Shown: positions 7,802-37,575 of the stretch, in pieces
How positions within the stretch are numbered: the stretch's first letter is position 1
How the letters are laid out: every line of letters starts with the position of its first letter
Assembly (NCBI GenBank): GCA_964016885.1
Contig: OZ024742.1
Coordinates: forward strand, 130,138,001-130,202,000
Direction of reading: 5' to 3'
DNA from: Eledone cirrhosa
Lineage: Eukaryota
DNA length: 64,000 nt
Made by a program: the position numbers and the translations under genes
The notes under the pieces: model-generated
What the model was told of the DNA's origin: nothing
The model's input: the letters and a program-made list of their open reading frames with translations, nothing else
The model's database searches: none

Positions 7802-7854
<53 letters not shown>

Positions 7855-7861
<7 letters not shown>

Positions 7862-8301: not shown

Positions 8302-8372
8302 AAGTAACAGCCGTACTAAGAGTGGGAAATGAAATTTTGTTTCATTTTTTCCGTTTATATATATATATATAT

Positions 8373-9091: not shown

Positions 9092-9133
<42 letters not shown>

Positions 9134-9909: not shown

Positions 9910-12900
9910 GGTGGCCGTGGTGGTAGGGTGTTGTGGAAGAGAGACAGTGGTGGCAGTGGTGGTAGGGTGTTGTGGAAGAGAGACAGTGGTGGTAGGGTGT
10001 TGTGGAAGAGAGACAGTCGTGGTAGGGTGTAATGGAAGAGAGACAGTCGTGGTAGGGTGTTGTGGAAGAGAGACAGTGATGGTAGGGTGTAATGGAAGAG
10101 AGACAGGGGTGGTAGGGTGTTGTGGAAGAGAGACAGTGGTGGTAGGGTGGTGTGGAAGAGAGACAGTGGTGGTAGGGTGGTGTGGAAGAGAGACAGTGGT
10201 GGTAGGGTGTTGTGGAAGAGAGACAGAGGTGGTAGGGTGTTGTGGAAGAGAGACAGTGGTGGTAGGGTGGTGTGGAAGAGAGACAGTGGTGGTAGGGTGT
10301 TGTGGAAGAGAGACAGGGGTGGTAGGGTGTTGTGGAAGAGAGACAGTGGTGGTAGGGTGGTGTGGGGGAGAGAAAGTGGTGGTAGGGTGTTGTGGAAGAG
10401 AGACAGGGGTGGTAGGGTGGTGTGGAAGAGAGACATTAATGGTAGGGTGGTGTGGGGAAGAGACAGTGGTGGTAGGGTGTTGTGGAAGAGAGACAGGGGT
10501 GGTAGGGTAGTGTGGGGGAGAGACAGTGGTGGTAGGGTGGTGTGGGGTAGAGACAGTGGTGGTAGGGTGGTGTGGAAGAGAGACAGTGGTGGTAGGGTGG
10601 TGTGGAAGAGAGACAGTGGTGGTAGGGTGGTGTGGGGGAGAGACAGTGGTGGTAGGATGGTGTGGAACAGAGACAATGGTGGTAGGGTGGTGTGGTAGAG
10701 AGACAGTGGTGGTAGGGTGGTGTGGAAGAGACAGTGGTGGTAGGGTGGTGTGGGGGAGAGACAGTGGTGGTAGGGTGTTGTGGGGGAGAGACAGTGGTGG
10801 TAGGGTGTAGTGGAAGAGAGACAGTGGTGGTAGGGTGTTGTGGAAGAGAGACAGTGGTGGTAGGGTGTTGTGGAAGAGAGACAGTGGTGGTAGGGTGTTG
10901 TGGAAGAGAGACAGTGGAGGTAGGGTGCTGTGGAAGAGAGACAGGGGTGGTAGGGTGTAATGGAAGAGAGGCAGTGGTGGCAGGGTGTTGTGGAAGAGAG
11001 ACAGGGGTGGTAGGGTGTTGTGGAGGAGAGACAGTGGTGATAGGGTGTAGTGGAAGAGAGACAGTGGTGGTAGGGTGTAGTGGAAGAGAGACAGTGGTGG
11101 TAGGGTGTTGTGGAAGAGAGACAGTGGTGGTAGGGTGTTGTGGAAGAGAGACAGTGGTGGTAGGGTGTTGTGGAAGAGAGACAGGGGTGATAGGGGTGTG
11201 TGGAAGAGAGACAGTGGTGATAGGGTATAGTGGAAGAGAGACAGTGGTGGTAGGGTGTAGTGGAAGAGAGACAGTGGTGGTAGGGTGTTGTGGAAGAGAG
11301 ACAGTGGTGGTAGGGTGTTGTGGAAGAGAGACAGTGGTGATAGGGTGTTGTGGAAGAGAGACAGGGGTGATAGGGGTGTGTGGAAGAGAGACAGTGGTGG
11401 TAGGGTGTTGTGGGGGAGAGACAGTGGTGGCAGTGGTGGCAGGGTGGTGTGGAAGAGAGTCAGTGGTGGTAGGGTGTTGTGGAAGAGAGACAGTGGTGGT
11501 AGGGTGTTGTGGAAGAGAGACAGTGGTGGTAGGGTGTTGTGGAAGAGAGACAGTGGTGGTATGGTGTTCTGGACGAGACAGGGGTGGTAGGGTGGTGTGG
11601 AAGAGAGACAGTGGTGGTAGGGTGTTGTGGAAGAGAGACAGTGGTGGTAGGGTGGTGTGGGGGAGAGACAGTGGTGGTAGGGTGATGTGGGGGAGAGACA
11701 GTGGTGGTAGGGTGTTGTGGGGGAGAGACAGTGGTGGTAGGGTGTTGTGGAAGAGAGACGGTGGTGGTAGGGTGTTGTGGAAGAGAGACAGTGGTAGTAG
11801 GGTGTTGTGGAAGTGACAGTGGTGGTAGGGTGGTGTGGGGGAGAGACAGTGGTGGTAGGGTGTTGTGGAAGAGAGACAGTGGTGGCAGGGTGTTGTGGAG
11901 GAGAGACAGTGGTAGGGTGTTGTGGAACTGAGACAGTGGTGGCAGGGTGGTGTGGGGGAGAGACAGTGGTGGTAGGGTGTTGTGGGGGAGAGACAGTGGT
12001 GGTAGGGTGTAGTGGAAGAGAGACAGTGGTGGTAGGGTGTTGTGGAACAGAGACAGTGGTGGTAGGGTGGTGTGGTAGAGAGACAGTGGTGGTAGGGTGG
12101 TGGAAGAGACAGTGGTGGTAGGGTGGTGTGGTGGAGAGACAGTGGTGGTAGGGTGTTGTGGGGGAGAGACAGTGGTGGCAGGGTGTTGTGGAAGAGAGAC
12201 AGTGGTGGAAGGGTGTAATGGAAGAGAGGCAGTGGTGGCAGGGTGTTGTGGAAGAGAGACAGTGGTGGCAGGGTGTTGTGGAAGAGAGACAGTGGTGGTA
12301 GAGTGGTGTGGAAGAGAGACAGTGGTGGTAGGGTGTAATGGAAGAGAGACAGTGATGGTAGGGTGTTGTGGGGAAGAGACATTGGTGGTAGGGTGGTGTG
12401 GAAGAGAGACAGTGGTGGTAGGGCGTTGTGGGGAAGAGACATTGGTGGTAGGGTGGTGTGGAAGAGAGACAGTGGTGGTAGGGTGTTGTGGAAGAGAGAC
12501 ATTGGTGGTTGGGTGGTGTGGAAGAGAGACAGTGGTGGTAGGGTGTTGTGGAAGAGAGACAGTGGTGGTAGGGTGTTGTGGGGGAGAGACAGTGGTGGAA
12601 GGGTGGTGTGGGGGAGAGACAGTGGTGGTAGGGTGTTGTGGAAGAGAGACAGTGGTGGCAGGGTGGTGTGGGGGAGAGACAGTGGTGGTAGGGTGTTGTG
12701 GAAGAGAGACAGTGGTGGTAGGGTGTTGTGGGGAAGAGACAGTGGTGGCAGGGTGTTGTGGAAGAGAGACAGTGGTGGTAGGGTGTTGTGGAAGAGAGAC
12801 ATTGGTGGTAGGGTGGTGTGGAAGAGAGACAGTGGTGGTAGGGTGTTGTGGAAGAGAGACAGTGGTGGTAGGGTGTTGTGGGGGAGAGACAGTGGTGGCA

Positions 12901-15393
12901 GGGTGGTGTGGGGGAGAGACAGTGGTGGTAGGGTGTTGTGGGGGAGAGACAGTGGTGGTAGGGTGTAGTGGAAGAGAGACAGTGGTGGTAGGGTGTTGTG
13001 GAACAGAGACAGTGGTGGTAGGGTGGTGTGGTAGAGAGACAGTGGTGGTAGGGTGGTGGAAGAGACAGTGGTGGTAGGGTGGTGTGGGGGAGAGACAGTG
13101 GTGGTAGGGTGTTGTGGGGGAGAGACAGTGGTGGCAGGGTGTTGTGGAAGAGAGACAGTGGTGGAAGGGTGTAATGGAAGAGAGGCAGTGGTGGCAGGGT
13201 GTTGTGGAAGAGAGACAGTGGTGGCAGGGTGTTGTGGAAGAGAGAGTGGTGGTAGAGTGGTGTGGAAGAGAGACAGTGGTGGTAGGGTGTAATGGAAGAG
13301 AGACAGTGATGGTAGGGTGTTGTGGGGAAGAGACATTGGTGGTAGGGTGGTGTGGAAGAGAGACAGTGGTGGTAGGGTGTTGTGGGGAAGAGACATTGGT
13401 GGTAGGGTGGTGTGGAAGAGAGACAGTGGTGGTAGGGTGTTGTGGAAGAGAGACATTGGTGGTAGGGTGGTGTGGGAGAGAGACAGTGGTGGTAGGGTGT
13501 TGTGGAAGAGAGACAGTGGTGGTAGGGTGTTGTGGGGGAGAGACAGTGGTGGCAGGGTGGTGTGGGGGATAGACAGTGGTGGTAGGGTGTTGTGGAAGAG
13601 AGACAGTGGTGGCAGGGTGGTGTGGGGGAGAGACAGTGGTGGTAGGGTGTTGTGGAAGAGAGACAGTGGTGGCAGGGTGGTGTGGGGGAGAGACAGTGGT
13701 GGTAGGGTGTTGTGGAAGAGAGACATTGGTGGTAGGGTGGTGTGGAAGAGAGACAGTGGTGGTAGGGTGGTGTGGAAGAGAGACAGTGGTGGTAGGGTGT
13801 TGTGGAAGAGAGACAGTGGTGGTAGGGTGTTGTGGGGGAGAGACAGTGGTGGCAGGGTGGTGTGGGGGAGAGACAGTGGTGGTAGGGTGTTGTGGAAGAG
13901 AGACAGTGGTGGCAGGGTGGTGTGGGGGAGAGACAGTGGTGGTAGGGTGTTGTGGAAGAGAGACATTGGTGGTAGGGTGGTGTGGAAGAGAGACATTGGT
14001 GGTAGGGTGGTGTGGAAGAGAGACAGTGGTGGTAGGGTGGTGGAAGAGACAGTGGTGGTAGGGTGTTGTGGAAGAGAGACAGTGGTGGTAGGGTGTTGTG
14101 GGGGAGAGACAGTGGTGGCAGGGTGGTGTGGGGGATAGACAGTGGTGGTAGGGTGTTGTGGAAGAGAGACAGTGGTGGCAGGGTGGTGTGGGGGAGAGAC
14201 AGTGGTGGTAGGGTGTTGTGGAAGAGAGACAGTGGTGGCAGGGTGGTGTGGGGGAGAGACAGTGGTGGTAGGGTGTTGTGGAAGAGAGACATTGGTGGTA
14301 GGGTGGTGTGGAAGAGAGACAGTGGTGGTAGGGTGGTGTGGAAGAGAGACAGTGGTGGTAGGGTGTTGTGGAAGAGAGACAGTGGTGGTAGGGTGTTGTG
14401 GGGGAGAGACAGTGGTGGCAGGGTGGTGTGGGGGAGAGACAGTGGTGGTAGGGTGTTGTGGAAGAGAGACAGTGGTGGCAGGGTGGTGTGGGGGAGAGAC
14501 AGTGGTGGTAGGGTGTTGTGGAAGAGAGACGGTGGTGGTAGGGTGTTATGGGGAAGAGACAGTGGTGGCAGGGTGTTGTGGAAGAGAGACAGGGGTGGTA
14601 AGGTGTTGTGGAAGAGAGACAGTGGTGGTAGGGTAGTGTAGAAGAGAGACAGGGGTGGTAGGGTGGTGTGGAAGAGAGACAGTGGTGGTAGGGTGTTGTG
14701 GAGGAGAGACAGTGGTGGTAGGGTAGTGTAGAATAGAGACAGGGGTGGTAGGGTGGTGTGGAAGAGAGACAGTGGTGGTAGGGTGTTGTGGAAGAGAGAC
14801 ATTGGTGGTAGGGTGGTGTGGAAGAGAGACAGTGGTGGTAGGGTGTTGTGGAAGAGAGACAGTGGTGGTAGGGTGTTGTGGGGGAGAGACAGTGGTGGTA
14901 GGGTGTTGTAGAAGAGAGACAGTGGTGGTAGGGTGTTGTAGAAGAGAGACAGTGGTGGTAGGGTGTTGTGGGGGAGAGACAGTGGTGGCAGGGTGGTGTG
15001 ATGGAGGGACAGGGGTGGTAGGGTGGTGTGGGGGAGAGACAGTGGTGGTAGGGTGTTGTGGAAGAGAGACAGTGGTGGCAGGGTGGTGTGGGGGAGAGAC
15101 AATGGTAGTAGGGTGTTGTGGGGGAGAGACAGTGGTGGTAGAGTGTTGTGGAAGAGAGACAGTGGTGGCAGGGTGGTGTGGGGGAGAGACAATGGTAGTA
15201 GGGTGTTGTGGGGGAGAGACAGTGGTGGTAGAGTGTTGTGGAAGAGAGACAGTGGTGGCAGGGTGGTGTGGGGGAGAGACAGTGGTGGTAGGGTGTAATG
15301 GAAGAGAGACAGTGGAGGCAGGGTGGTGTGGAAGAGAGACAGTGGTGGCAGGGTGGTGTAGGAGACAGTGGTGGTTGGGTGGTGTGGAAGAGA
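9910..15393. repeat. 30-bp G-rich minisatellite, ~180 copies (GGTAGGGTGTTGTGGAAGAGAGACAGTGGT)
   Basis: A 30-nt period is visible in the aligned rows. The long ORFs are its translation. Confidence 0.97.
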
Positions 15394-15834
15394 GAAAATG
15401 AATAAGATAGAAAGGAACCATCGATGATAACAGAAAAGGTGATGGTAGGGTATATTAAATTCTTTTATATCCTCATTTATAATTATCACGATGGGAGAAG
15501 AGAAGCAGAGTTATTAGGATGATAATAGGGAGGATTGAGTACAGACTGTCCCAATGTCATCCTTCATTACAGAAGTTACATGGTGTTGTTAATAGAGGAG
15601 TGAATGGGTGTCAGAGACATGAGTGGCTCAAACAGATCTGATACCATCCATATTTACATGGGCAGTATCTTCATGTTTAGATTATTGCCATCATATTCCG
15701 ATGATTGTTTACATAGTTAGATGGTTATTTTTAATTTTTAATGGTTGTTTTCAAATTCAAATGTGTGTTGCCAAATTTTTAAGTTATTTTTATATTTAGA
15801 TGGCAGCTTTCATTTATATAATTATTTCATATTT

Positions 15835-20864: not shown

Positions 20865-21708
20865 ATAGAGAAGTATAGAAGATATAGAGAGGTATAGAAA
20901 ATATAGAGAAGATAGAGAGATATAGAGAGGTATAGAGAGGTATAGAGAGGTATAGAGAAGATAGAGAGGTATAGAAGATATAGAGAGGTATAGAGAAGAT
21001 AGAGAAGATAGAGAGATATAGAGAGGTATAGAGAAGATAGAGAGGTATAGAAGATATAGAGAGGTATAGAGAGGTATAGAGAAGATAGAGAGGTATAGAA
21101 GAGATATAGAGAGGTATAGAAGAGATATAGAGAGGTATAGAAGAGATATAGAGAGGTATAGAAAGGTAGAGAAGATAGAGAGGTAGAGAAGATAGAGAGG
21201 TATAGAAGAGATATAGAGAGGTATAGAGAAGTATAGAGAAGATAGAGAGGTATAGAAGAGATATAGAGAGGTATAGAAGAGATATAGAGAGGTATAGAAA
21301 AGTAGAGAAGATAGAGAGGTAGAGAAGATAGAGAGGTATAGAAGAGATATAGAGAGGTATAGAAGAGATATAGAGAGGTATAGAGAAGATAGAGAGGTAT
21401 AGAGAGGTATAGAAGAGATATAGAGAGGTATAGAAGAGATATAGAGAGGTATAGAAGGTATAGAGAGGTATAGAAGAGATATAGAGAGGTATAGAGAGGT
21501 ATAGAAGAGATATAGACATGTATAGAAGGTATAGAGAGGTATAGAAGGTATAGAGAGGTATAGAGAGGTATAGAAGAGATATAGAGAAGTATAGAGAGGT
21601 ATAGAAGAGGTATAGAGGTATAGAAGAGATATAGAGAGGCATAGAAGAGATATAGAGATGTATAGAAGGTATGGAGAGGTATAGAAGAGATATAGAGAGG
21701 TATAGAGG
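20865..21708. repeat. Purine-rich AGAGGTATAG/AGAGATATAG satellite, left half
   Basis: The same satellite resumes at 35870, so it is interrupted by the LTR composite. Confidence 0.93.
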
Positions 21709-21975
21709 TAAAGAAAAATAATATATCGTCCAGGTGTATGAACGATATCTCATCTCTCTAAGATTATTAATTAAAACAGAAGGGCTTTACGATAACAAGG
21801 CTAATCTTTTTATTAAATGATACATTTAATAAAACACAACATAATAATTACATTCACAGGACATACCCTGCAAGCTAAACGGCAATGGCTTAATTCTTAC
21901 ATTCAAGAAGAGATATGAAAATCTCTTGGTCAAAAACAGGCGTTTTCCCAAAGTACGTCCACGTGGCAGGACAAA
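21709..21975 (-). repeat. LTR type B, left copy (truncated and fused to viral sequence)
   Basis: 21731-21975 matches 35466-35709. Its start TAAAGAAAAATAAT resembles the PBS-adjacent LTR end at 35180 (TAAAGGAAAATAAT). Confidence 0.75.
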
Positions 21976-24900
21976 ATGACTCCTTGTGAAACATAAGCTT
22001 ATAAAACTATTGAAGATATATTTCACAAGGAGTCATTTTCTTTGAATCCTTGGTTGGAAGATTTCGAAATCATTTCACCGGATGATGGAGAGAAGATTGT
22101 ACCAGTGTCTGCTGACTATAATTTGAACTCCCCACTCCTATTAGATGAAATGGAGGCTATATATACCTTCTGCATAATTGGAAGATTGGAAGAGCGATTT
22201 CTTCATAGGCCGAATATTACATTCACTTCAAATCGTCTATACATCTCAAAAAATACAGTTGACTTCAAAAATCCCATTAACAATCATTCCTGGTTGTCTC
22301 AATTCATTTACAATCCCGATAAGTTTACAACCACTGAAACTCCTGCATACGTCATGAGAGAGACAAAAAAATGGAGTGAGATATGCGGAGGGCTTGTAAG
22401 CACTTACTTCACTCACATAACAGGAACTCTGTTCCCCTGTCATAATCCTCACAGATTTGCCTGGCTCGATTATCCTAAAACTATAAGACGAGACATAAAT
22501 CACTACTACACAATGTTTTTCGAAATATACAGAATAATACTGATTATGAACACTGCAAGTCATGATGAGCTTGTCAACTTAAAAAACAAACATCTATTCA
22601 AAATTGAAATCTCCAGCTATAATTCTGAGACAAAAATGTTTCACAGCTTATTCACCACAGATCTCTTAGGAATTGTGGATATTTTCCCGGGTTACTGCTT
22701 TTTCCAGTTTTATGGAGTTTTATTAGACCGTAACATGATATTAATGGCTAAAGATACTCTTTTGGCCAGATTCACCTCGACATGGTGTGCACTAAATTCT
22801 AAAGAATTTGGATCTCATGAGCATTACAGGAAATTGTGTGAATTTTATAAGTCAGGTGATGCATTAATCACAAATCACGGAAATGCAGCATATAAGGGTT
22901 TGAAATTGTGGGAATCGCACTGTGTAGATTCCAAGGAAAAATTGGCTTCTGAAGTTGTTCCAGAAATCCCACCATTTGGGAAGTTCAATGATCACCTAAT
23001 AAAATCAAGAGAGAAGCTGACCAGCTTATATGGACAACAATTTATGATTTTCTTTGAGCCTTTGACTTACGTGAAAGTCCCTAGATTTCTGGCATTTTTG
23101 AGAGGGATCTTTAGACACTGGGCACATCCTTAAATTGATTACAAGGCAGGCCTTGAAAAGCTACATCATTATGTATCAGTCGACAAACGAACTGATGTGT
23201 ACTATGCAGCATCTAAAGCCAGTGAATTAACCTTTATAGTACTAGAGGCTCAATTTAAAATAAAAAAGAAATGGTTCATAGATGAACAAAGACTGCCACC
23301 CAATCACATCCTCAGACTGTATATTACTGATCAGAAATGGCCCAATGCCAGAGTATTGAAACAGTTGGAAGGAACTTGGCACACACTACCTCTAGTCCCT
23401 TGTTTTGAAATCCCTGCCCAAGTGGACATGAGCACTCTATACTCTGATAAGAGCTTCAGCATGACCAGATCAGAGATCATAAACTACATGAAAATACATC
23501 CCCACAGACCGATACCAACCAAGAAAGTGCTGGCGGAAGCTCTTTCCAAGCCGCAGCTCCATGTTAAGGATTTTCTTGAAAAGATAGAAACCGAAGGTAT
23601 AGATGAAGATCATTTAATTATAGGTCTAAAACCGAAAGAGAGGGAACTCAAAATAGAAGGGAGATATTTCGCTCTAATGAGTTGGCAATTACGAACATAT
23701 TTTGTATTAACAGAGTATCTTATGAAGGAGTTTTACCTTCCTTTGTTTTCAGAGATTACTATGAGAGACGATCTGATTAAACTGATAGGAAAGATGCAGA
23801 ACGTTTCTGGAGGACAGGGATCTAGAAACTATGAAACCATTACCATAACCAATCAGTTTGATTATGAAAAGTGGAACAATAATCAGCGTTTGGAATCCAA
23901 TGGACCTGTATTTCGTGTTATGGGGCAATTTTGGGTTTATCCTACTCTGATTTACAAGACTCATTTGTTTCTCCAACAATCACTTATCTATTTCAATTAC
24001 AGAGGAGATAAGCTTACAACAGATGGGGTCAACATTTTGTGTAGAGAAAACCACTGTTGCTGGTCTGATCAAAAAGGTGGTTTGGAAGGAATTAGACAAA
24101 AGGGATGGACCATCCTTTGTATCTTGATGATTTACGTTGAAAGCAGAATAAGAAATACTCATTCTAGTGCCTTAGGAGCTGGAGACAATCAGATAGTTAA
24201 TAATCATTATAAGTTGGAGAAAGGTTTATCCAGAGAGGAGCGTCTTACAGAAATCAATCATATTATTCAAAATAATGAAGCCATTTGTACGGCAATCAGA
24301 TCTGGAGCAGAAAAATTGGGGCTGCCTATAAATGATGACGAGACAGTCCAGAGTTCTCAATACTTGGAATATGGGAAAACTATTATTCAGAGGAAAAATG
24401 ATTCCCTCCCCCAGAAAAGTATACTCAAGGATATCGTGTTTATCTAATGATCAAATTACGAGCTTAGGGAATCTAATGTCATCACTGTCGACTGGAATTA
24501 TAACTCTCTGTCAGCATTCAGACACCATAAAAGACCCATTGTCCTGGTTTGTGATCTACGCCCCATGGATAATTGTTTTACTTTCGATTCATCACCCTCT
24601 ATTGCGGGATTCCTTCTTTGGTTGGCGTTTGAAGCAACTCAAATCGATCAGCAAGTCAAGAAATTACATGAATAAAGCTGAGATTTATGAAGACTCAAAG
24701 ATGTTTGGTCAAAGTCTTAGATTTATGATTAGAGGAATTTTTTTGGCTCCCTCTTTGGGTGGAGTTTGTGGAATGGCCCCCTCCAGACTTTTAATACGTG
24801 GATTTCCCCATCCTGTGACAGAGTCATTACACTTTTGGAAAGTGATCCATGACAGTCACCCGGACCCTTTAATTAAAAAAATAGCCTTAGACTGAGGAAA

Positions 24901-26884
24901 CCCATCTATCGGTGGACCAGAAAGTCGAGATATCCTTCTTTTAATAGAACAGCCAACATCTCTCAATCTGAGAAGAGGGGTCAGTTCTGAAAGCATTTTG
25001 AGAAAGACAGTTCATAAAGGTCTTGTGGAGAATCTAGATAAAATTAAGAATGAGCTTTTTAGAGAAGCACTCATTGCAGACACAGCAGATGGGTCTTTTG
25101 TAACTAACTTTCTATCATCCATAAAACCGATTTTCCCAAAGTTTTTATCCGAGATGTTTAATGCTACTTTTCCGGGATTAATGACGTCTTTTGTTAAAAT
25201 GTATGAGAATTCTCGATCAATTAGACAACATTTCTCGTCTAAAGTGAGCAAAGAACTAGCTAGAAAATTCACCGATGCAGAGGGGGCCAGCCCCTTGAAT
25301 CTCAATAAATTTATAACACCCGGGAGCATATGGAACTGCTCCTCAATCTACGTACAAAGATTGAGAGAAAGATCATGGGGAGAAATTGTCGGAACAACAG
25401 TACCATTTCCAGGAGAAATGTTCAATGCACCTTCTGAGGCTACCAAAGATCATAAAGACTGCAACGAGCATGTCCCTGACACATTTATAACTGTGGTGAC
25501 CCCTCAAGGACTCGACACAGAATATGAAAAAGCAGGTAACAAGGCCGCCTATTTAGGATCCAAAACCACCGAGTGCACTGGAATTTATCAACCATGGGAA
25601 AAGACAACAGAAGTTTCTTTCCTCCAACGAGCTTCCAAGTTACGAGACACTATCAACTGGTTTGTTCACAAAGATTCTATGTTAGCCAAAGCGATTTTTG
25701 AGATCTTGAAATCCCTAACAGGAGGAAACTGGACTGAAAGCTTCCCATGTTTTGAGCTCAAACCCTTCTTTTCAGATGGCTCTGAATCATCCGAACTATA
25801 TCAGGTTGATAAGAACTCAACCTCACAGGGTACCTCCATCTTACCCTCCTACAGATCTTGAACAGGCTAAAATATTATTCGCTTACATGATGAAATCATG
25901 GATATCAGGAAAAAGCAAGGCCCATAAACTGTCGAACAAAGATCTGTGGGTATTTTCAGACTTTGACACCATTGAAGTTGTAAGTAATTTTTTGATCTTA
26001 AAGCAAATGTATGATTTACTGATAACTCAAAAGACAGGACCCTCTATTAAAAAGAAAATCAGAGAATTAAAACAATTGCATATAAGCATAGACAATCGAA
26101 AGCAAAGCACAGAATTGAATTCTTTTAAGAAAGCTATGTTTTCTTTGACCAGACTAAAACATAATTCTTATATCAAAAGAGTGGACAAAGAGATCAGATT
26201 TTCGGCTAAACAAATGCCTGTTCTTCCACCCCTGAATCCAGTATCCCTCAACAAGTGGGGTGAGGAAATAACATTCCCTATAGAGTCCAGTGATTTCATT
26301 TTCCACTCAGTCCTATGACATCGAGTAAAGGATTCACCAGTGCTGTAGAAAAGTATATAACCCCTCCGTATCTGGAACCAGATTGGCCCAATTAGCAACA
26401 GGATCTCATTATAAATTAAGATCAATTATGGTCAGTAAAAGCATCACATTCTCTGGAGCGATATTCGCCGCTGATGGTTCTGGAGGGGGGTGCGCTGCAG
26501 GCCTCAGACATCAGTCGGAGGCTTCTGTTGTTTTCAATAGCTTTCTCGATTTATCTAATACAACCCTTAAGGGTAGCAAGCTGCCACCTCCCATGGCGAT
26601 AGTGGACATGAGCACTCTATACTCTGATAAGAGCTTCAGCATGACCAGATCAGAGATCATAAACTACATGAAAAAACATCCCCACAGACCGATACCAACC
26701 AAGAAAGTGCTGGCGGAAGCTCTTTCCAAGCCGCAGCTCCATGTTAAGGATTTTCTTGAAAAGATAGAAACCGAAGGTATAGATGAAGATCATTTAATTA
26801 TAGGTCTAAAACATCTAAAGCCAGTGAATTAACCTTTATAGTACTAGAGGCTCAATTTAAAATAAAAAAGAAATGGTTCATAGA
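21976..26884 (+). pseudogene. L: Endogenous rhabdovirus-like (Mononegavirales) L protein gene: RdRp, partial PRNTase, connector and partial MTase; disrupted
   Basis: Collinear motifs matching VSV-like L as I recall it: ADYNLNSPL, FRHWAHP, IIGLKPKERELKIEGRYFALMSW, DYEKWNNNQR (motif A), GGLEGIRQKGWT (B), GDNQ (C), GTTVP, AYLGSKT (GxxT), PHRVPPSYP, QLATGSHYKLRSI and ADGSGG. In-frame stops at 23131, 24893 and 26316, frameshifts near 24378 and 26320-26350, and a deletion near 25756. Confidence 0.95.
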
Positions 26885-27094
26885 GGAACCAGAAGTTGTA
26901 AATTGGTGCAAGAAAAATTCCTGTAATATATAACAATGAAGCCAAAGCCTTACAAGGTACTCTTTACAAGTTGTTGAAACCGGTTTCAAAACGAACAATA
27001 TAGAGGTGAAATAGGTTAATGCATGCAAGCATTACACAAAAAATATACAACAAATGCAATAATTATACACATGCAGCAATAAATGCAAAAAGCA

Positions 27095-27350
27095 TTAAAA
27101 ATACGATAGGCATTGAAAATGCCATAGGCAGTAAGGTTACAAAATGCAATGAAAAATTATAATATGCCTTAAAAATACGATAGGCATTGAAAATGCCATA
27201 GGCAGTAAGGTTACAAAATGCAATGAAAAATTATAATATGCCTTAAAAATACGATAGGCATTGAAAATGCCATAGGCAGTAAGGTTACAAAATTCAATGA
27301 AAAATTATAATATGCCTTAAAAATACCAAAGGCAGTCAGGGTACAAAATG
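27095..27350. repeat. 74-bp tandem repeat, ~3.4 copies, between Gypsy pol and the viral insert
   Basis: TTAAAAATACGATAGGCATTGAAAATGCCATAGG... starts at 27095, 27169 and 27243, with a partial copy at 27317. Confidence 0.9.
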
Positions 27351-27408
27351 CAACAACAAATTCAATATACAGTAAAAATAGCTGCAAGAAAAAAGAATAC
27401 AATTCAGT

Positions 27409-30010
27409 TTATATTACTGCATAGCATACGGGGCCAATGCACCCTTCGCCCAGAACGGGTCGTAGTTCTGTGTGTTGATGTGGGAGGGGGAGAAGAAATA
27501 GGCGTATGTGGCAAAGAAAAGAAGGGGGCATTTGAGTTTCAAGTGTCATTGTGTCATTGTCCAGGTTTGCTAGTTTGAGACGATCAACGGAAACCGTTTC
27601 CCTGGAACCCCGAATGTCCAGTGTGAAATGTTTGTCTGTGTGAGCAAGCACACGATAGGGTCCAGAGTACGGCCGTTGAAGAGGGTGTCTCACGGCGTCG
27701 TCTCTAACGAACACATGTGTCCACAAGGCAATATCACTTGGGACGGCAGTTTTTACAGTTTGCTTCCTAGTGCCCATCGGTGGTAGCTCTTTGAAGTAAG
27801 AGTGGAGCCGGGACACGTAGGAAGCGGGGTCCTGCGAAGTGAGGTCAAAAGGGGCCAGCATTTGCCCCGGTAACGTCAGAGGAGTACCATAAACTAATTC
27901 GGCAGAGGAGAACCCAAGGTCCACCTTTACCGTCGACCGGATGCCTAGCAACACCACAGGCAGGTACTCGCTCCAACGTGATGAGTCCATGGAAGCCCTT
28001 GAGGAGGCTTTGAGCTGTCTGTGGAATCTTTCCACCATTCCGTTCGAGGCTGGGTGGTAAGCCGTGGTTCTTATTCGAGTAGCCCCCATGATTTGGGCTA
28101 ATTCTCGGAAGAGTTTAGACTCGAATTGACGACCACGATCCGTTGTGATGGTGGTTGGTACACCGAAGCGCGCGATCCATGAAGATACTAGAGTACGAGC
28201 TGTGGTTTCAGCGGTGATATCTGTTATAGGAACGGCTTCAAGCCAACGCGAAAAACGATCGACGATCGTCAAAAGACACGAAAAACCACGACTAACCGGC
28301 CACGGGCCGACGATGTCCACGTGAATGTGTTGAAATCTTGCATCCGGGCAGGTGAAGGTTCCGAGAGGAGCCTTAACATGTTTATGAATTTTCGCTTGTT
28401 GGCAAGCGACACAGGACCGACACGAAGCAGTAATGTCACGTCTCACATCCGGCCAGAAAAATCTGGCTGTTATGAGTTTTACTGAGGCTGATACTCCTGG
28501 GTGAGAAATACCATGTAAAGCGAGAAAAACAGTTCGTCGGTGTTCCACTGGGACTAGGGGCCGTGGTGAGTCCAATGAAACATCACGCAGTATTTGTCCA
28601 TCTGCCGTTGAGATCGGAATGTACTTCAATGTACAATTTTTAAACTCCGGCGATGCAACATCCAACAATTCGAGAGTGGGTTGAGCAGCCGCCATTCGAT
28701 GTAAATCTATCTCCTCGGAAGACGAAATCGATGCTATCGGGAGGCGAGACAGCGCGTCGGCCGCTGTATTCGAAGAACCCGGAATATGTTGGATGTTGCT
28801 CGTGAACTGTGATATGTAGTCCAGGTGTCGCGTCTCTCTGGGCGAGTATTTGTCTGCTTTAGTTCGAAGAGCAAACGTCAAGGGTTTATGATCAGTGAAA
28901 ATGGTGAACGTTCTACCTTCAAGTACATGAGCAAAGTGTTTCACTGATAAATAGATTGCTAATAGCTCCCTTCCGAAGGTGCTATAGCGGGTTTCGGCAG
29001 GCTTTAACTTTCTCGAAAAGAACTCGAGTGGTTGCAGTAACCCATCACACTTCTGTTGTAAAATTGCGCCTACCGCGCAATCGGAAGCCTCAACACAGAG
29101 CGACAGCCCGGCGTTGGGCTTGGGGTGGGCGAGTAAAGAAGCAGTCGCCAATGCTTTTTTTACTTTCTCAAAATCCGCCAGTTGCATTGGACTTAATGAA
29201 ATGTTCATATTCTTCCGTCGGCATTTTTTAAAAATTTCTGTCAACGAGGACAGTAAGCTGGAACAATTAGGCACGAATCGCCTATAAAAATTCACAAGGC
29301 CTAAGAATTGCCGTAATTGTCGAAGCGAACCTGGTGGAGGCAAATCCGAAATTGCCATAACTTTCTCCGGAAGTGGCCGAATACCATCTGCATCAATAAG
29401 ATGGCCCAAAAATGTTAGTGATGTTGAGCCGAAAATGCACTTAGAAGCATTAATACGAACACTGTATTTCTGTAAACGGCGAAATAGGGTATCCAGATGT
29501 TTGGAATGTTCGGGAGAAGAACTAGCAATCAGTACATCATCGATATAAGTGTAGACAAAATCGAGACCACGAGTGACATCATCCATGAATCGTTGGAAGG
29601 TACTTGCAGCATTTCTAAGTCCGAAAGGCATAGTGAGGAACTCGAATGCTCCGAAAGGAGTGGCAATAGCAGTCTTAGGAATATCGTCCTTGTTAACCGG
29701 GATTTGATTATAAGCGCGGACCAAATCAAGCTTCGAAAAGATCTCGCACCCCTGCAATGACGATGCGAAATCCTGCAAATGCGGGATTGGGTAACGGTCG
29801 GGCACAGTAATTGCGTTTAGACGCCGGTAATCGCCCGTCGGTCTCCAATCACCCGAATGTTTGCGTACCATATGCAGAGGGGACGCCCAAGGGCTTGTGG
29901 AACGCCGGATTATTCCCAAGTCCAGCATGTGGTCGAACTCGGACCGTGCAGCCCTTAACTTCTCAGTAGATAATCGTCGAGGACGTGAAACAACGGGTGG
30001 TCCTGTAGTC
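27409..30010 (-). CDS. pol: Ty3/Gypsy pol (RT, RNase H, integrase); open frame interrupted upstream by the hAT insertion
   Basis: [39 protein letters not shown], RNase H RELLAIY/TDHKPL, HHCC zinc finger (H..SHPG...CVACQ), integrase [16 protein letters not shown], and terminal [11 protein letters not shown] in an adjacent frame. Confidence 0.95.
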
Positions 30011-33000
30011 CAGTGGTCGCCAACCTTTCTAAAACCGAGGAACCCTCTAAATATTTTGAATTCTTCACGAAACCTATACAATACAAAACTTTTCAAAAAA
30101 AAATAATAAAGTATTTATTTATTTTAGTGTTTCATGCGTGTGTATGTAATCGAACACAATGAACTAGTGGCTTTTCTGCTGTTGCCCCTCATCAGTGAGT
30201 TTAGAAAATCGAGGGTCAACACTAGTTAATGCCAGTCTCATACACTCGTCAATTGCTGACAGTTTATTCATCTTCTTTGTGCTGATTTCTACCAACTGCG
30301 AAAACCCTTTTTCGCACAAGTAGCTAGATGGGAATAAAGTCAAATATTTCAATGCAAGTTGGCTGATTTCATTAAACTACCCAATCAAGAATAAGTCGAT
30401 CCATAGTTCTTTCTTTCTGCTTTCGAATATCACTTTCAGGTCTTCGTTTGAATTCAAATCCATCAACTGATGTAAGCATTGTGCAGGTAGTAAATTTTTA
30501 CAATTTCCAGCGTCATTTTCTGACATTAACTGCTCGATTTCGGTGAACGGGTTTTTATCCATAAATTTCCGCTAACAATATTTTTTTCCATCAAGTCAAA
30601 ATAATCTGAAAAACTCGTGGAAAGCACATTTAAATGAGAAAGAATAATCTTCTTTAGATTGTTGGAGTCAAAATCTTCTCTCTTTTTAAGCTCTATTTCA
30701 AGGTTTGAAAGTAATGAGTAATTGTCCGATTCAATTCTTTGTATAAAGATGTTTAATTTTGATTGAAAATATGTAATAAAATTGATTGAAGTAAAAAATC
30801 TGCATTGTTACCCTGAAACACTTATTTAGTTTGTTCAGTTCACCAAAAATGTCTACTAAATAGGTTTCTAATACACTTGCTCTTTCATCATTCTGTTTTT
30901 TTTTAGAAAAACTATTATTTCTTCTCTCAGTTCAAAATCTCTCTTCATAGCATCCCCAAAAGACAGCCAACACACATCATTGTTCAATAACAATCTATTA
31001 TAATTACTTCCAGAAGATTCACAAATAGATTCAAACATTCTAGAATTTTTTGCTCTTGCATGGATCAAATTGATAATTTTGACAATCTTTCAGCTGGTCA
31101 TTTAATATTTGAGCATCTCAGTCTTTGAATTTTTTTGAACACAAAACCTCTCGATGAATCATACAATGATTTGAAATACAATTTGGGGTCTGTTCTTTAA
31201 TTTTTGCATTCAAACCAGAATTTTTACCAGTCATTGCAGCTGCTCCATCTGTTGTTATTGAAGCCAACTTGCTCCAAGATACACCATTTTTTAAAAAATA
31301 CTCTTCAATTTTATTGAATATATCTTGACCTTTAGTTGTGATGTCTAATGCCAGACAAAACAAATACTCTTCTACTAATTCTTTTTTATCAAGGTCTACA
31401 AACCGTACATAGCAAATTAATTGATCCTTGTTATTAATATCCGTAGTTTCGTCCACTTGCAGACCAAAACATGTGCTTTTCTTTAGTGCGCAGTTAGTAT
31501 CTTATTTTCTATATCAGAAGAAATATCAATTATCCTTCTTTTTACGGTATTTGCTGACAATGGTAACTGGCTTAATTTTTCTTTGTCCTTAATACTGCAG
31601 CTTTCAAAAAGATTCTCTGTAGCAATTTTTATACTTGGCAGAATTAACTGTTCTCCTAATGTAAATGGTTTCTTGTTTTTACCAACCAAATGTGAAATTT
31701 CAAAAGATGTTCTTGTTAAAGCTTTATTTCTATCTGACTTTTTACAAAACAAGTCATACATATTAGCTTGTGATTTTTTGATGTTGTTTGATGTAAAGTA
31801 TTCCAGTGACTTGTTTTTATCATTGGTGTGATTAGTATCAAGGTGTCTTTTAAGTTTTGCAGGATTTAAACAGCTATTTGATAGAACTTTTGAACATAGC
31901 AAATACATGGGCTGATCTGGTGTATCTTTTTTAGTGTCAGCTTTTTGAAATCCATATCTAACATAATCATCACACCACTGTCTAACCTTACTGCTGGTAT
32001 CTAACTTCAGCTTCTTTGCAGTAGACATCATATCAATGTTATTTATCTACAGTTAACATTTTTAATATGACATTAATAAACAAGAGAAATTAAGTTTTTT
32101 TTTATTACAAAAAGTACTTAAATTAACTTTAATTTTAGATATTTGGAAAAACTTAACTAGTTAAAAAAAAATTTTAATTTTAAAAAATTGAAATTTCTCC
32201 ATTTTAGGATGGCAAACATATTATTTAAAGTCTTATAATAATATTAAAATATTAGGGGTTACTGAAAAAGGTGCAAATTTATAAACAACTAGAAGAAATT
32301 TTTTTCAGAGTCCAGCACTTCCTGCATATACTACTTTAGGGTCGTATTAAATATTATTGGTAATATAAATATATTTAAATATCCGCCATACTAAAAGGTG
32401 CAAAAAATGAAAATCAGCTGTTAGTGTAGAAAATGTGACGATGGTATTGGAAATTAATTCAGATATCTTCTATCTATTTTGACTCAAAGTTAGATATAAT
32501 ATAAGAAGGCTTTAGGCTGCGTTAAACATATTAGATTGGAACAAATAAAGTTTAGTCAAATGTTTGTGAACATATATATTTATTATATAAAGTAATTTCT
32601 CAATTGTGAATGCAGATGTCATCAAATGAATACATAATTGTGTGGCAAAGTTTATAGTGTATGCATGGAATACAAAATTACCTTTGTTAGTAGTCGAAAC
32701 TTTACAGGCGTTATATTTTCTGTGCAAAGTACAACAGAATGTAACGTATTCTTATTTAGAATTGTCTGTGGAACTGGATGCATGTTGAAAACGACTAGTA
32801 AGCGAGTTCACTCTGAGGAAACTTTAGGCGACTTTAAAGCTTTTGTGAGGACAGCAGATTAAAACGTGTTCTCTATTGAAAACATTCTACTGAACTTACG
32901 TTGTGAGAACAGCGAACTGATCCTGTCTCTCGGCTGAAAGACCTCGCTGAACTGAAGTTTTCAGTTTAAAGTTATGCTGTCATCGACCAACATTTACTTG

Positions 33001-33335
33001 TTCGTGATTGGTCAATTTCTAAGTTCAATTAGTAGTAGTCAAATTCTCGGAATTCAGAAAACTATGTCTTTCCAAGAATTGATGTGAAATTGAAAGTATT
33101 CAATTTCCACGAATCTCAGAACAGTGTTTTTCTGCTAATTCAAGTGAGAAACTGAAAGTAGTGTTTTCCACGAATTGGAGTGGAGAACCTGTGTACAATA
33201 GTACTCGTTCATTTATACATTTGGCATTTTCTTTGCACCTTTTTCAGAAAACCCAAAATATTAATGGTAATGTAAATATTTATTTTTTTAAGGAACCCGG
33301 AGTTTGTTTTACGGAACCCATGTTGGCGACCACTG
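30011..33335 (-). mobile_element. hAT (Buster/Charlie-type) DNA transposon with both termini, nested in Gypsy pol
   Basis: 14-bp perfect TIRs CAGTGGTCGCCAAC (30011-30024 / 33322-33335) and an 8-bp TSD CTGTAGTC (30003-30010 / 33336-33343) with central TA. Confidence 0.97.
30164..32031 (-). pseudogene. hAT/Buster transposase (ZBED5/SCAND3-like), frameshifted
   Basis: YVRYGF...CSKVLSNSCLNPAKLKRHL, KKPFTLGEQLILP, LSANTVKRRI, DETTD, TTDGAAAMTG, HCMIHRE and FPSSYLCEKGFS, spread across broken ORFs. Confidence 0.92.
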
Positions 33336-34800
33336 CTGTAGTCGATATGAAGTGTTCAATCGCATGTTCCGGGCTAGTAATTCGTAACTTTCCCTGCGTC
33401 AACTGAGGGAATGAATGTAACAGGCTTTGATACTGGTTGCCCACTTCAGCCAAGAAAAAGGAAGGGCTGACAGTGGCGACCTCCGGCTCTGAACCCTCGA
33501 AAAAAAGGCCTGTTTCAGCATCAAAAAGGCGTTGTCTGCGGATGTCCACCGACAAGGAAAAATGGTGTAGAAAATCCGCTCCCAAAATGGCGTATGGCAA
33601 GTCGGCGATAGTAAACGTCCACTTCAATTCACGACGCAAATTTTTTAACCGAAGAGGAAGCAAAACTTGCCCGTACGTTCGAATGGCCGTGTGGTTGACT
33701 GCTCGTTAATTTATATTTGATTCAGATGGGTTTTTTTTTTTAAATAACTGACTGGCCAAATACTCAGCGACGCGCCAGTATCGACAAGGAAACATTTTTT
33801 CGACCGCAGGTCGTATACGAAAAGATGGCGGTTCGGTCGATTTTCCCAGAGTTCACTAACCGCCCCTAGTGGCTCTGCTTTGCATTTTCCGATCTCTTGT
33901 AATTACAGGGCGTGCGACAACGTTGTGCCCTACTGCCGAAGTTAGCATGATACCAACAAAACGAAGAATTATTGTTGTCTGCGTTGTAGTGCTAGCGATG
34001 AATATAAGACGGCGGCGAACGGTACTCGTAGCGGTTTCAAGGAATAGCAGACGGAGGCGAACGGTACTCGTAGCGGTTTCAAGGAATAGCAGACGGAGGC
34101 GAACGGTACCTCAAACGTTGAGAAGCCTCTCTGTGTTGTACGGTCAAATCCTCTCCACTTTTTGGGTGAGCGCTTCGATCATCTCCAACAGTTTGCTGTC
34201 GGCCACAGAAGAAGAAGCCACACAAGGATTATGCCGACTGCTGTTAGAGTCCACCTCTAGTATTCTATCCGCGGATGCGGCAAGTTGATCTAACGATTCC
34301 CTCTCCAAATTATTGACCAAGACCATCTGCGCACTTGGCGGTAAACGAGAGAAAAATAGTTGTTTGAGGAATGGGGTGTCCATCCCCTGGGAGTCGCTCA
34401 ATTCCCGCAGATGTCGCAAATAGGAGCTTGGCGTCCTGTCACCCATTTGCGCATCATCTAACAATTCCCGAAAACGACTTTCCGCTGACTTGGTATTCCT
34501 CCGAATAATTTCCCCTTTCAACGAGCCATTAGTCTGCGGCTAAATTGGTTACCACATCCTTCACGGAATATGCCAACGACACAGGCAAGCCACTAACTAG
34601 TACCTTCAGTTTATGCTGTTCTTTGGTTTTGGTTAAATCAAAATAGCATTCAAGCTGCAAAAACCATAACTTGATGTCGCCTGCGAAGGACGGCAAATGA
34701 TGAGATTCATGATTGCCGAAGAATCTCCCAGGACGAACTATGTCTTTGAAGCAGCCACTCGACCAAAAGTCCACACTGGAACTCCGAAATCCGTTCACGC
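33336..34800 (-). pseudogene. gag: Ty3/Gypsy gag and protease (frameshifted)
   Basis: LPSFAGDIKLWFLQLECYF, MGDRTPSSYLRHL, Cys/His knuckle CWYHANFGSRAQRCRTPC (~33900-33958), protease FLVDTGASLS (~33762-33792) and ILGADFL. Rejoins pol as HFISTT|[11 protein letters not shown] once the hAT is removed. Confidence 0.9.
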
Positions 34801-35149
34801 GAATTCAATCGAAATCAGTAGAAGAGTCCAAGGAATAAAAAAAAAAAAAAATGCTTTTTGGTGAAGACGCCGTCACGTGGCACGATGCAGCCAATCAGAT
34901 TGCTTGGATTGAAGGAGATACACTGTGCGCGGGAAAACCGCACAAGGAAGAAGACACGCAGAATAGCGGGAAAATGTCGGCCATTTAAAAAATTATCATG
35001 AGGAAATGACGGTGAAAATTCAGGAAAGAAAAAAATGTTTACAGTGTGAACAGCGAACAGAGTTTAGAAATCATCTAATTTTTTTGGGGGGGAAAGGTTT
35101 GGATTTAAACCAAAGAGAAAAGAAAAAAAATTTTTTTCTTTTAGTGTCC

Positions 35150-35178
35150 GCGTATTGGAATCACGTCGTCGGTCACCA
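35150..35178 (-). promoter_or_regulatory. Primer-binding site, tRNA-Trp type
   Basis: Minus strand TGGTGACCGACGACGTGATTCC lies one base from the LTR end. The plus strand ATCACGTCGTCGGTCACCA resembles the animal tRNA-Trp 3' end ATCACGTCGGGGTCACCA. Confidence 0.8.
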
Positions 35179-35179
35179 A

Positions 35180-35467
35180 TAAAGGAAAATAATGTTTGTC
35201 GGTGAATGGACAATTCATCGTTTCTCTTTGTATGAATAAATGACTCCAGAAAGGGGGTGAACAATCAAAAATTAACGATCCTTTATTAAGAAAAAGCGTA
35301 ATATATTCTCCGGTGCAGGAATAAGCGAATCCTTTATCGTCTGTTCGTGTTCGCGGTTCGTGAGAAAGATCCTGGTGAGTGACCGGATGTATCTTGCCCC
35401 GCGCTCTCTGAAAAATCATTCAGGGGAGGCAACTGCTAGTTGCTAAGCGACCATCTCAGTCACTACA
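35180..35467 (-). repeat. LTR type A (5' LTR of the gag-pol element; no partner copy in the window)
   Basis: The minus strand begins TGTAGTGACTG and ends ...CCTTTA directly before the PBS. Confidence 0.7.
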
Positions 35468-35869
35468 GGTGTATGAACGATATCTCATCTCTCTAAGATT
35501 ATTAATTAAAACAGAAGGGCTTTACGATAACAAGGCTAATCTTTTTATTAAATGATACATTTAATAAAACACAACATAATAATTACATTCACAGGACATA
35601 CCTGCAAGCTAAACGGCAATGGCTTAATTCTTACATTCAAGAAGAGATATGAAAATCTCTTGGTCAAAAACAGGCGTTTTCACAAAGTACGTCCACGTGG
35701 CAGGACAAAGGCGACTGGAATGAAAAACCAAATCTCTTGAGTTTTACATTGGCGTCTCTTCTTTTAGAGAACGCCGAGATAAGGGAAGTGATTCGCTATT
35801 TTTTGGTGTTACCCACAGGTGGCGACACTGCGTTGCTATAGTCAACACACTATCGCCATAGTTACTACA
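35466..35869 (-). repeat. LTR type B, right copy
   Basis: The minus strand begins TGTAGTAACT. 35466-35709 is duplicated at 21731-21975, and the copy is followed by GAGG and satellite. Confidence 0.75.
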
Positions 35870-37575
35870 GAGGTATAGAAAAGTATAGAAGAGATATAGA
35901 GAGGTATAGAAGAGATATAGAGAGGTATAGAAGAGGTATAGAGAGGTATAGAAGAGGTATAGAGAGGTATAGAGATGTATAGAAGAGATATAGAGAGGTA
36001 TAGAAGAGATATAGAGAGGTATAGAAGAAACAGAGAGGTATAGAAGATATAGAGAGGTATAGAAGAGATATAAAAGGTATAGAAGAGATATAGAGGAGTA
36101 TAGAAGAGATATAGAGAAGTATAGAGAGGTATAGAAGAGATATAGAGAGGTATAGAAGGTTTAGAGAGGTATAGAAGGTATAGAGAGGTATAGAAGAGAT
36201 ATAGAGAGGTATAGAAGAGATATAGAGAGGTATAGAAGATATATAGAGAGGTATAAAAGAGATATAGAGAGGTATAGAAGAGATATAGAGAGGTATAGAA
36301 GAGATATAGAGGTATAGAGAGGTATAGAAGAGATATAGAGGTATAGAAAAGTATAGAAGAGATATAGAGAGGTATAGAAGAGATAGAGTGGTATAGGAGA
36401 TATAGAGAGGGGATATACAAATGAAGGGAGCAAATATATAGTAAAAGAGAGAATGGGGATAAGAGAGGAGAGGGGGCATAGAATATAGATAAATGAAAGA
36501 GAGAGGGTGTGAGAAAGATAAAGTAAGAGAAAGTGTAGGAGAGATAGGGGAAGAGTGTAGAATATAGATGGGAAAAGATAAAGTAAGAGAAAGAGTAAAA
36601 GAAAAATAGAGAGAGGCGAGATAAAGAAATTAAAGGGAGCAGAGGGGGGAGAGACAGAGAGAGAGAGAGAGACAGAGAGAGTGAGAGACAGGGAGAGAGA
36701 GAGGGGGAGACAGACAGAGAGACAGACAGACAGGCAGACAGAGAGAGAGCGAGAGATGGAGACAGACAGAGAGAGAGAGAGATGCAGAAATGGGGGGGGG
36801 AGAAGAAAGCAACAAAAAAAGTAAAGAAAAATAGAATGAGGTAGTGGTGCAAGTGAAAGAGGGGGGGGGGGGGCAAAAAAGCTGAAAAGAGAGTGGGTTG
36901 TAGAAATGGAAAGGAACAGAATGTAGATAGAGTGAGAGGGGGAGAGTCCAAAGGAAGATAAGAGTGGGAGACAAAGGGGAGTGAAATAGGAAAAAAAAAC
37001 AAAGAGAGATGCAGAGAGAGAGGAAGTAGAAGAGAGAGAGAGAGAGGGGGAGAGAGAGAACGAGGAAGTAGAAGAGAGATGTAGAGAGAGATGACGGGGG
37101 TAGGGTGAGAGAAAGAGAGGGTAGAAAAGAGATGCAGAGAGAGAGGGGAGAGAGAGAGAGAGGGGGAGAGGTAGACAGCATAAAAATTGAGTTAAATAGA
37201 CAATAGAGAAAATAAAGAAAAAATGATGTGAAGAGTGAAGAAAGGAAGAGAGAGGGAGCAAGGGAGATATATGATGAGAGGAAAGGAGAGGTAGAGGAAA
37301 GGAGAGATAGAGGAAAGGAGAGGTAGAGGAAAGGAGAGGTAGAGGAAAGGAGAAGTAGAGGAAAGGAGAGGTAGAGGAAAGGAGGGGTAGAGGAAAGGAG
37401 AGATAGAGGAAAGGAGAGGTAGAGGAAAGGAGGGGTAGAGGAAAGGAGGGGTAGCGGAAAGGAGGGATAGAGGAAAGGAGAGGTAGAGGAAAGGAGGGGT
37501 AGAGGGATAGAGGAAACGAGAGGTAGAGGAAGGGAGGGGTAGAGGAAAAGAGGGATAGAGGAAAGAGAAAAGAAA
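35870..37575. repeat. Purine-rich satellite (right half), then GA-rich low-complexity sequence
   Basis: AGAGGTATAG units, then (GA)n and GGAAAGGAGAGGTAGA units. Confidence 0.93.

Follow-up and report, generated by a model that had tools for sequence, protein, structure and literature searches.

Rhabdoviruses are defined by their virion and a negative-sense RNA genome of 10-16 kb, and the ICTV 2026 profile lists molluscs as hosts solely for the subfamily Gammarhabdovirinae, whose hosts are fish and molluscs (PMC13249128). Capture of rhabdovirus RNA by Ty3/Gypsy long terminal repeat (LTR) retrotransposons through copy choice has been proposed for Aedes aegypti (10.1101/127498); in that report, the endogenous viral elements (EVEs) span 50-2,520 bp, few derive from the polymerase gene L, and 543 of the 614 nearest LTRs share the polarity of the EVE. 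In Aedes, antisense piRNAs from an EVE are reported to restrict the cognate virus (PMC7522710). For a mollusc, the dog whelk, antisense small RNAs with a 5'U have been described from an EVE that probably derives from a rhabdovirus N gene; it comprises N alone, was placed near lyssaviruses and was described with no genomic context (PMC6085071). Here, a stretch of 64,000 nucleotides of Eledone cirrhosa (assembly GCA_964016885.1, contig OZ024742.1, positions 130,138,001 to 130,202,000, forward strand), hereafter the window, was analyzed, in which a fragment of a rhabdovirus L gene lies antisense within a young Ty3/Gypsy retrotransposon.

The locus resembles the Aedes EVEs in the association of rhabdovirus sequence with Ty3/Gypsy LTRs, in the copy-choice model that it suggests, and in N being commoner than L. 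It differs from the Aedes EVEs in that a 4.6-kb L piece sits in one element with both ends readable, and in that four of five LTR-internal captures are antisense; this contrast in polarity is suggestive only, the Aedes count being one of nearest-neighbour LTRs. With the dog whelk it shares rhabdovirus-derived DNA in a mollusc, and the window L is set apart from that EVE by the published description.

The accessible part of a further article (PMC10956553) mentions neither molluscs nor cephalopods. No description of octopus rhabdovirus EVEs was found in our literature search, outside of which subscription papers largely lay, and supplements of EVE screens could list such loci. A paper by Rey-Campos et al. 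of 2023 reportedly deals, by its title, with a rhabdovirus in cephalopod transcriptomes or metatranscriptomes, which, as far as a title can show, makes a rhabdovirus in a cephalopod less novel in itself. Gypsy-captured rhabdovirus EVEs are already known from Aedes, and the virus lineage, the host group and the mostly antisense architecture look new.

The L fragment and its damage

The segment from 21976 to 26600 on the plus strand was collinear with residues 23-1721 of the L protein of vesicular stomatitis virus (VSV), and tblastn mapped residues 23-783, 775-1214, 1443-1551 and 1630-1721 to it. The initial annotation, made from the letters alone, had named a VSV-like motif order from DYNLNSPL to the SAM motif of the methyltransferase (MTase), as well as divergent motif contexts, and both were borne out: DYNLNSPL was located at 22114, GDN at 24181 in the context ALGAGDNQ, LGSKT at 25553, HYK at 26407 and DGSGG at 26473, and the Pfam domains followed in the order Mononeg_RNA_pol (E 4e-121 for 23134-24444), mRNA cap, connector and MTase. 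The long open frames of the six-frame listing, all on the plus strand, covered 21997-23133, 23134-24447, 24332-24895, 24896-25861, 25719-26318 and 26329-26832. A 437-aa frame in the core scored 432 bits against VSV L while the best of 100 shuffles reached 24.6, so that the resemblance is not due to chance. Against solved structures (PDB), this core scored 460 bits with VSV L and 364 with 6ueb, which we take to be rabies L, and at most 44 with any other. The segment is almost certainly a genuine rhabdovirus EVE.

Stop codons interrupted the fragment at 23131 and 24893, and small frameshifts were found near 24390 and near 26315. A further change of frame near 25745 proved to be a deletion of about 228 codons, equivalent to VSV L residues 1215-1442, by which the HR capping motif (VSV 1227) was removed. 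These five breaks agreed in number with the roughly five disablements counted before, when the deletion had been overlooked; likewise, about 1470 L-equivalent codons were present where about 1500 had been thought reconstructable, and they do not form one continuous gene. The fragment stopped within the MTase domain with about 390 C-terminal residues absent, and no ATG stood ahead of DYNLNSPL in the first frame. The L piece is thus unable to code for a working polymerase, and any function may lie in a putative antisense RNA read from the LTR. Past 26600, the viral DNA continued up to 26889 with two pieces from within L that had been copied a second time. The adjoining 26890-27420 was considered as more viral sequence and rejected; it gave no L match by tblastn and is the 3' untranslated region (UTR) of the retrotransposon.

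The retrotransposon that holds the fragment

The reading of the segment as a fossil L fragment was upheld, and to it were added an LTR retrotransposon context, the large deletion and many other captures that had gone unseen. The element occupied 21709-35869 and was read on the minus strand as LTR-A nt 1-404, LTR-B, primer-binding site (PBS), gag/protease, a hAT insertion, reverse transcriptase (RT)-RNase H-integrase, 3' UTR, the antisense virus, and LTR-A nt 161-428 (Table 1). In this order, about 200 bp containing the polypurine tract (PPT) and the start of U3 (LTR nt 1-160) was replaced by 4.9 kb of virus. A repeat of the 245 bp ahead of the virus occupied 35466-35709 and differed by one mismatch and one indel, and the junctions between virus and element shared 1-5 nt of microhomology. 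The order RT-RNase H-integrase, the LTR pair, the PBS and the target duplication are those of Ty3/Gypsy elements. At least 40 copies of LTR-A were scored across the genome, and five full family-A copies displayed the 428-bp LTR, the PBS, a tract rich in purines ahead of the 3' LTR, and target duplications of only 4 bp; the PPT present in these five sister copies is lost here.

Table 1. Positions of the viral pieces, the retrotransposon parts and the flanking satellite in the window
Feature	Position	Strand	Remarks
Rhabdovirus L pseudogene	21976..26600	+	RNA-dependent RNA polymerase (RdRp), part of capping, part of connector, MTase start; antisense to retrotransposon
Internal deletion junction	25738..25752	+	VSV L 1215-1442 gone, HR motif lost
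Second copy of L stretch 23421-23632	26601..26812	+	212 bp, 1 difference; depth roughly doubled in run X1
Second copy of L stretch 23210-23287	26812..26889	+	GAAC microhomology joins retrotransposon 3' UTR
3' LTR, family A (428 bp)	21709..21975	-	nt 161-428 only; AAA microhomology at virus junction
Perfect 19-bp inverted repeat at LTR-virus junction	21973..22039	.	Arms 21973-21991 and 22021-22039; fold-back-like templated copy
Retrotransposon 3' UTR	26879..27408	-	74-bp tandem repeats; cut about 50 nt short of LTR start
Ty3/Gypsy pol	27409..30010	-	RT, RNase H, integrase; single open frame
hAT-type DNA transposon within pol	30011..33335	-	3.3 kb; terminal inverted repeats; perfect 8-bp target duplication
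gag/protease region	33336..34815	-	Stops; no Pfam match; 95-98% like family-B copy (300-nt bins)
Primer-binding site	35161..35178	-	Begins TGG
LTR of second family B	35180..35467	-	Own 5' end joined to LTR-A
5' LTR, family A	35466..35869	-	nt 1-404; U3 intact; 99.2% to 3' LTR remnant over 245 bp
AG-rich satellite, left of element	20865..21708	.	Ends with 4-bp duplication GAGG (21705-21708)
Same AG-rich satellite, right of element	35870..36410	.	Begins GAGG (35870-35873)

The transposon within pol gave DUF4371 and weak zf-BED matches, and is presumably of the hAT family, partly by its pattern of terminal inverted repeats and target-site duplication. The right LTR was considered as a single long repeat; this was rejected, as two LTR families are joined there. 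In the joined region (35180-35869), the inner LTR begins exactly at its 5' TG, a configuration that could come from nested insertion with later recombination or from a switch between packaged cDNAs.

Relationships of the virus

Among 221 protein matches (766-2185 residues), the best was Drosophila immigrans sigmavirus with 52% identity over the RdRp core, and ten matches among shorter proteins showed 42-53% identity. A profile-free scan of 1.84 billion representatives reached the same ceiling, so that no L relative above 53% identity was found in the protein homology searches or among these representatives; a viral contig collection also gave no relative of L, in a search sensitive to close relatives only. 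The suggestion of an uncharacterised lineage is consistent with these values, and near-identity to a described virus, which would have pointed to contamination, was not seen. The L proteins of Alpharhabdovirinae (Drosophila immigrans sigmavirus, vesiculoviruses, Barur ledantevirus and perhabdoviruses) resembled the EVE in domain order, motifs and 45-52% identity over the 437-aa core, and differ in that the EVE is a broken, partial gene known here from DNA alone. Over 760 columns, identity of the EVE to alpharhabdovirus L was at most 41%.

Trees were built from the N-terminal 799 codons of the EVE, with X at its one stop, and from references out of the 221 full-length proteins picked to cover genera, namely 124 for FastTree, 43 for a quick tree under an IQ-TREE mixture model, and 22 under LG+G4. 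In all three trees, the EVE was placed within a clade sister to rabies L (P0165, which matches PDB 6ueb along its full length), and this position was supported at 100/99 in the 22-reference tree, its bootstrap being not fully settled, and at SH-aLRT 100 in the mixture tree. The assignment to Rhabdoviridae, previously proposed on motifs, is shown by domains, motifs and three trees: L phylogeny, domain order and the GDN motif are those of the family, with the HR region deleted and the C-terminal domain absent. Within the family, the EVE nested among animal genera of Alpharhabdovirinae, by genus-to-subfamily labels that we assume for the tree rows. It nested between rabies and VSV, which speaks indirectly against Gammarhabdovirinae, a subfamily without a named member in the trees.

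No supported sister of the EVE was found in the three trees (up to 124 references, with not all genera present and many rows unnamed), and among the genera sampled, which were not all, it was monophyletic with none. Its end branch measured 1.5-1.75 changes per column, and rows of such length are placed with little certainty. A sister relationship to rabies L was rejected (approximately unbiased (AU) test, p 0.007), unlike the position near lyssaviruses stated for the dog whelk EVE. Killamcar virus 1, whose host is presumably a freshwater mussel, and Scophthalmus maximus rhabdovirus are aquatic alpharhabdoviruses with 48% core identity to the EVE; they grouped with it in no tree, and a sister position of the EVE to the mussel, turbot and brine-shrimp group was absent from the trees and not rejected (AU p 0.156). 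The source of the EVE was probably an alpharhabdovirus distinct at the level of genus, as judged from sequence.

Inheritance, age and host

The stretch was contained in three sequencing runs (X1-X3) of one sample, possibly the source of the assembly itself. No RNA run was among those listed as containing it, which counts neither for nor against expression. A contig of run X1 spanned the LTR-virus junction without difference, and depth in this run was 7-11 in unique parts, 14-18 in the re-copied parts, and 200-700 in the LTR. The viral sequence is joined to host DNA at about single-copy depth, as expected of a non-retroviral EVE, and no other near-identical copy of the fragment was present in the assembly (none above 77% outside the locus). 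In three of three RAD runs of other individuals, virus-only bins were matched at 95% or more by few reads; these runs came from one other study, with a bin depth of at most 1.5 and no junction in the reads. The reads favour presence in the population, without demonstrating fixation.

Stretches identical at capture (245 bp of LTR and the duplicates of 212 and 73 bp) differed by 2 substitutions in 530 nt, equal to 0.38% (95% range 0.05-1.4%), leaving out of the count one indel and one mismatch within a junction. At an octopus neutral rate near 0.0036 per site per million years, the capture would be roughly 0.5 million years old, with a range of 0.06-2. The earlier suggestion of a fairly recent germ-line entry is consistent with this divergence of about 0.4%, and the four small disablements fit better with the upper end of the age range or with a defective RNA template.

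A mollusc host, likewise suggested before, was supported by molluscan haemocyanin genes (39 domain matches) in the 3.0-Gb assembly. Those on C1 have seven units each, presumably the octopod pattern. The N of locus L042 had one homologue among 1654 scored candidates, a protein of Octopus bimaculoides with 41% identity. This rhabdovirus N-domain protein (P0131, UniRef), an automatic annotation from another species, was 39-52% identical to seven of the eight N frames compared.

Other rhabdovirus captures in the genome

Of the further rhabdovirus genes for which a search of the genome had been suggested earlier, N and an N-P junction were found. The PF00945 profile gave eight N loci, and two further ones were found at L067 and L079, which makes about ten, one pair of them with an N-P junction. 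PF00946 revealed more L pieces on C23, on C27 and elsewhere on C3, a count that is a floor from a stricter first look. The PF00974 (G) search gave no match, and its control also gave none, so that absence of G is not shown.

The L pieces at the C27 locus (L038) were 68-81% identical to the window, and over 426 codons the two L sequences differed at proportions of 0.78 of synonymous (pS) and 0.12 of nonsynonymous (pN) sites, which implies that their divergence took place in viruses, before separate captures. Among six N frames compared, 12 of 15 pairs were saturated at synonymous sites with pN 0.13-0.26; of the remaining pairs, two had a synonymous divergence (dS) of about 0.7, and L040/L043 one of 0.075. 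Such saturation with low pN indicates that the N copies diverged while still viral and under selection, and that they came in through separate entries. The sequences of this genome thus indicate that several related viruses were captured separately and that rhabdoviruses have repeatedly reached the germ line of this animal. The N of L044 was only 20-25% like the other N copies, and from this divergence a second, distant rhabdovirus lineage would also have entered the genome. Among the captures found, no locus tied the window L to a particular N.

A shared layout was displayed by L040, L043, L041 and L045, with a 5' LTR cut after nt 130-180, antisense N, PPT, and a full 3' LTR. L041 had a clean 4-bp target duplication, and its join lay at the A-run that closes the N gene. 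L040 and L043 lie on different chromosomes and have the identical LTR-to-N junction, on account of which they were counted as one capture. L067 is a complete family-B element in which N in sense orientation replaces pol. Independent LTR-internal captures were therefore antisense in four of five cases; L038, L042/L079, L044, L046, L047, L068 and L069 are without a clear LTR pair around the virus and stood outside this count. L067 is a counterexample to the idea that every capture is antisense. At L042 and L079, N was followed by an A9 run, CT, AAC and then an open reading frame (ORF) in the position of P without Pfam match, an N-P junction with sequences like gene-end and gene-start signals, from which at least one template longer than one mRNA would follow.

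Several of these loci showed further features. L067 (G000:C2:336015000-336024900) retains at 5671-9294 both LTRs and the PPT, with gag 95-98% like that of the window, and is a possible non-autonomous carrier of a viral gene. L040 5189-6724 (C4) and L043 4434-6003 (C5) are the same LTR-N-LTR cassette with different flanks, 92% alike; their differences fall 6/6/16 by codon position, a third-position excess over the neutral expectation, and L043 is frameshifted. L042 4061-6457 and L079 6082-9900 are 96% alike, maybe paralogues or haplotypes, and the unplaced contig C219 reaches further into the P-position ORF. L038 6107-9710 (C27) is scrambled, a mosaic in which short L pieces of a relative of the window's virus stand in both orientations. 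L047 1-4970 (C28) contains a 1.8-kb unit with a 5' part of N in at least three tandem repeats, 99% alike, upstream of a Gypsy 5' LTR, and decayed N and L pieces remain at L044 (C1:314.57 Mb), L068 (C23:16.22 Mb) and L069 (C3:37.50 Mb).

Proposed mechanism and alternatives

We infer that the chimera was made by template switching of RT, an origin that we regard as likely, and that it was made before integration. An alpharhabdovirus of an unsampled lineage would have replicated in octopod germ-line cells, and its RNA would have been copied by the RT of a Ty3/Gypsy retrotransposon. The RT would have departed from its own template beside the PPT, made three hops along viral L RNA at microhomologies of 1-5 nt, which would account for the two re-copied pieces and the one long deletion, and returned to the element within U3, after which the chimeric DNA would have integrated into the satellite array. 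In normal reverse transcription, a single copying of U3 serves both LTRs. Given this single copying, a whole 5' U3 together with a cut 3' U3 points either to a switch in plus-strand synthesis, or to one in minus-strand synthesis with a primer from a second RNA. The first and favoured route would be a switch in plus-strand synthesis onto viral plus-sense RNA; in the second, genomic RNA would have been the target of a switch in minus-strand synthesis, and a second packaged RNA would have supplied the plus-strand primer. The plus-strand route is favoured because of the four N loci whose 5' LTR is cut after nt 130-180, one of them at the A-run that closes the N gene, as such early-cut 5' LTRs would best match a stalled plus-strand primer. 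A transcript from the LTR would carry a putative antisense L RNA.

Several points weigh against switching before integration and against parts of the evidence for it. The locus has been remodelled by the hAT insertion and by the LTR-A/LTR-B join, so that a later entry of the virus, into an integrated element, is also conceivable. In a satellite rich in GAGG, the GAGG duplication counts for little, and the LTR pair is 99.2% alike when the best other copy already reaches 98.8%. End-joining repair, too, typically leaves a fold-back and short templated copies. One capture, L067, has the sense orientation; for a divergence of 0.4%, two stops and two frameshifts are a rather high number; run X1 is possibly the assembly's own sample; and the matching reads of other individuals, all from a single study, are few, with a bin depth of at most 1.5.

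Some of these points would be met if free viral cDNA had been patched by microhomology-mediated end joining into a double-strand break in a previously integrated Gypsy copy, with loss of about 200 bp around the PPT. The 19-bp fold-back at one junction, the short templated duplicates, the microhomologies of 1-5 nt and the further post-insertion changes at the locus suit such a repair, under which the intact 5' LTR needs no special account. However, independent loci of three LTR families broke repeatedly in like places, 130-180 nt into U3 and near the PPT, which repair would not target, and the hops follow one viral gene in a single orientation; we consider the patch unlikely. The EVE could also be real and stem from a virus of a parasite or prey that did not infect the octopod, as rhabdoviruses of flatworm parasites are reported (PMC9241645) and no live relative occurred in the databases searched. 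For host LTR elements to capture it, viral RNA must nevertheless be present in the germ cells of the host; at least five N types differ from one another at or close to synonymous saturation; and N of 39-52% identity is present in another octopus species, which makes this origin improbable. It is less credible still that an assembler joined contaminating viral sequence to host repeats. The region is rich in repeats, and the sole strong carriers, X1-X3, are one sample that may be the assembly source; against this, the locus lies on a 379-Mb scaffold, the fragment is broken by stops, frameshifts and a deletion, its junction is spanned by a contig, other individuals yield matching DNA reads, and the virus is an RNA virus without a DNA stage.

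The locus provides polymerase sequence for a branch of animal rhabdoviruses without a sampled living member, and ties this branch to octopods. The intact element ends and the base-level junctions at several loci make the long-proposed capture by retrotransposons, including the strand that was copied, examinable outside insects and mice. With its antisense layout behind an LTR, the locus allows EVE-based immunity in a mollusc to be tested directly through small RNAs, and rhabdovirus reads in cephalopod RNA data should be taken with caution, as they may stem from the host genome. A wider picture is speculative and, taken whole, doubtful: a genus-level alpharhabdovirus clade of octopods would have entered the germ line repeatedly, Gypsy capture would have been mainly antisense by the plus-strand route, unlike in mosquitoes, and the LTR-driven antisense cassettes, some of them spread to further sites, would serve as an inherited defence through small RNAs and account for part of the rhabdovirus signal in cephalopod transcriptomes.

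Other features of the window

Elsewhere in the window, frames with an Ala/Arg/Glu-rich repeat and no Pfam match were found at 4692-5500, with motifs that presumably recall the start of a Helitron Rep protein. A Tc1/mariner-like transposase remnant with weak helix-turn-helix matches, as well as remnants of LINE-like RT, of which one has a PHD finger, were located at 43605-44318, 39432-40007 and 49876-51285. Large minisatellites with units of 30 bp and 54 bp, in 183 and at least 160 copies, occupied 9917-15395 and 55363-64000 and gave rise to spurious long frames.

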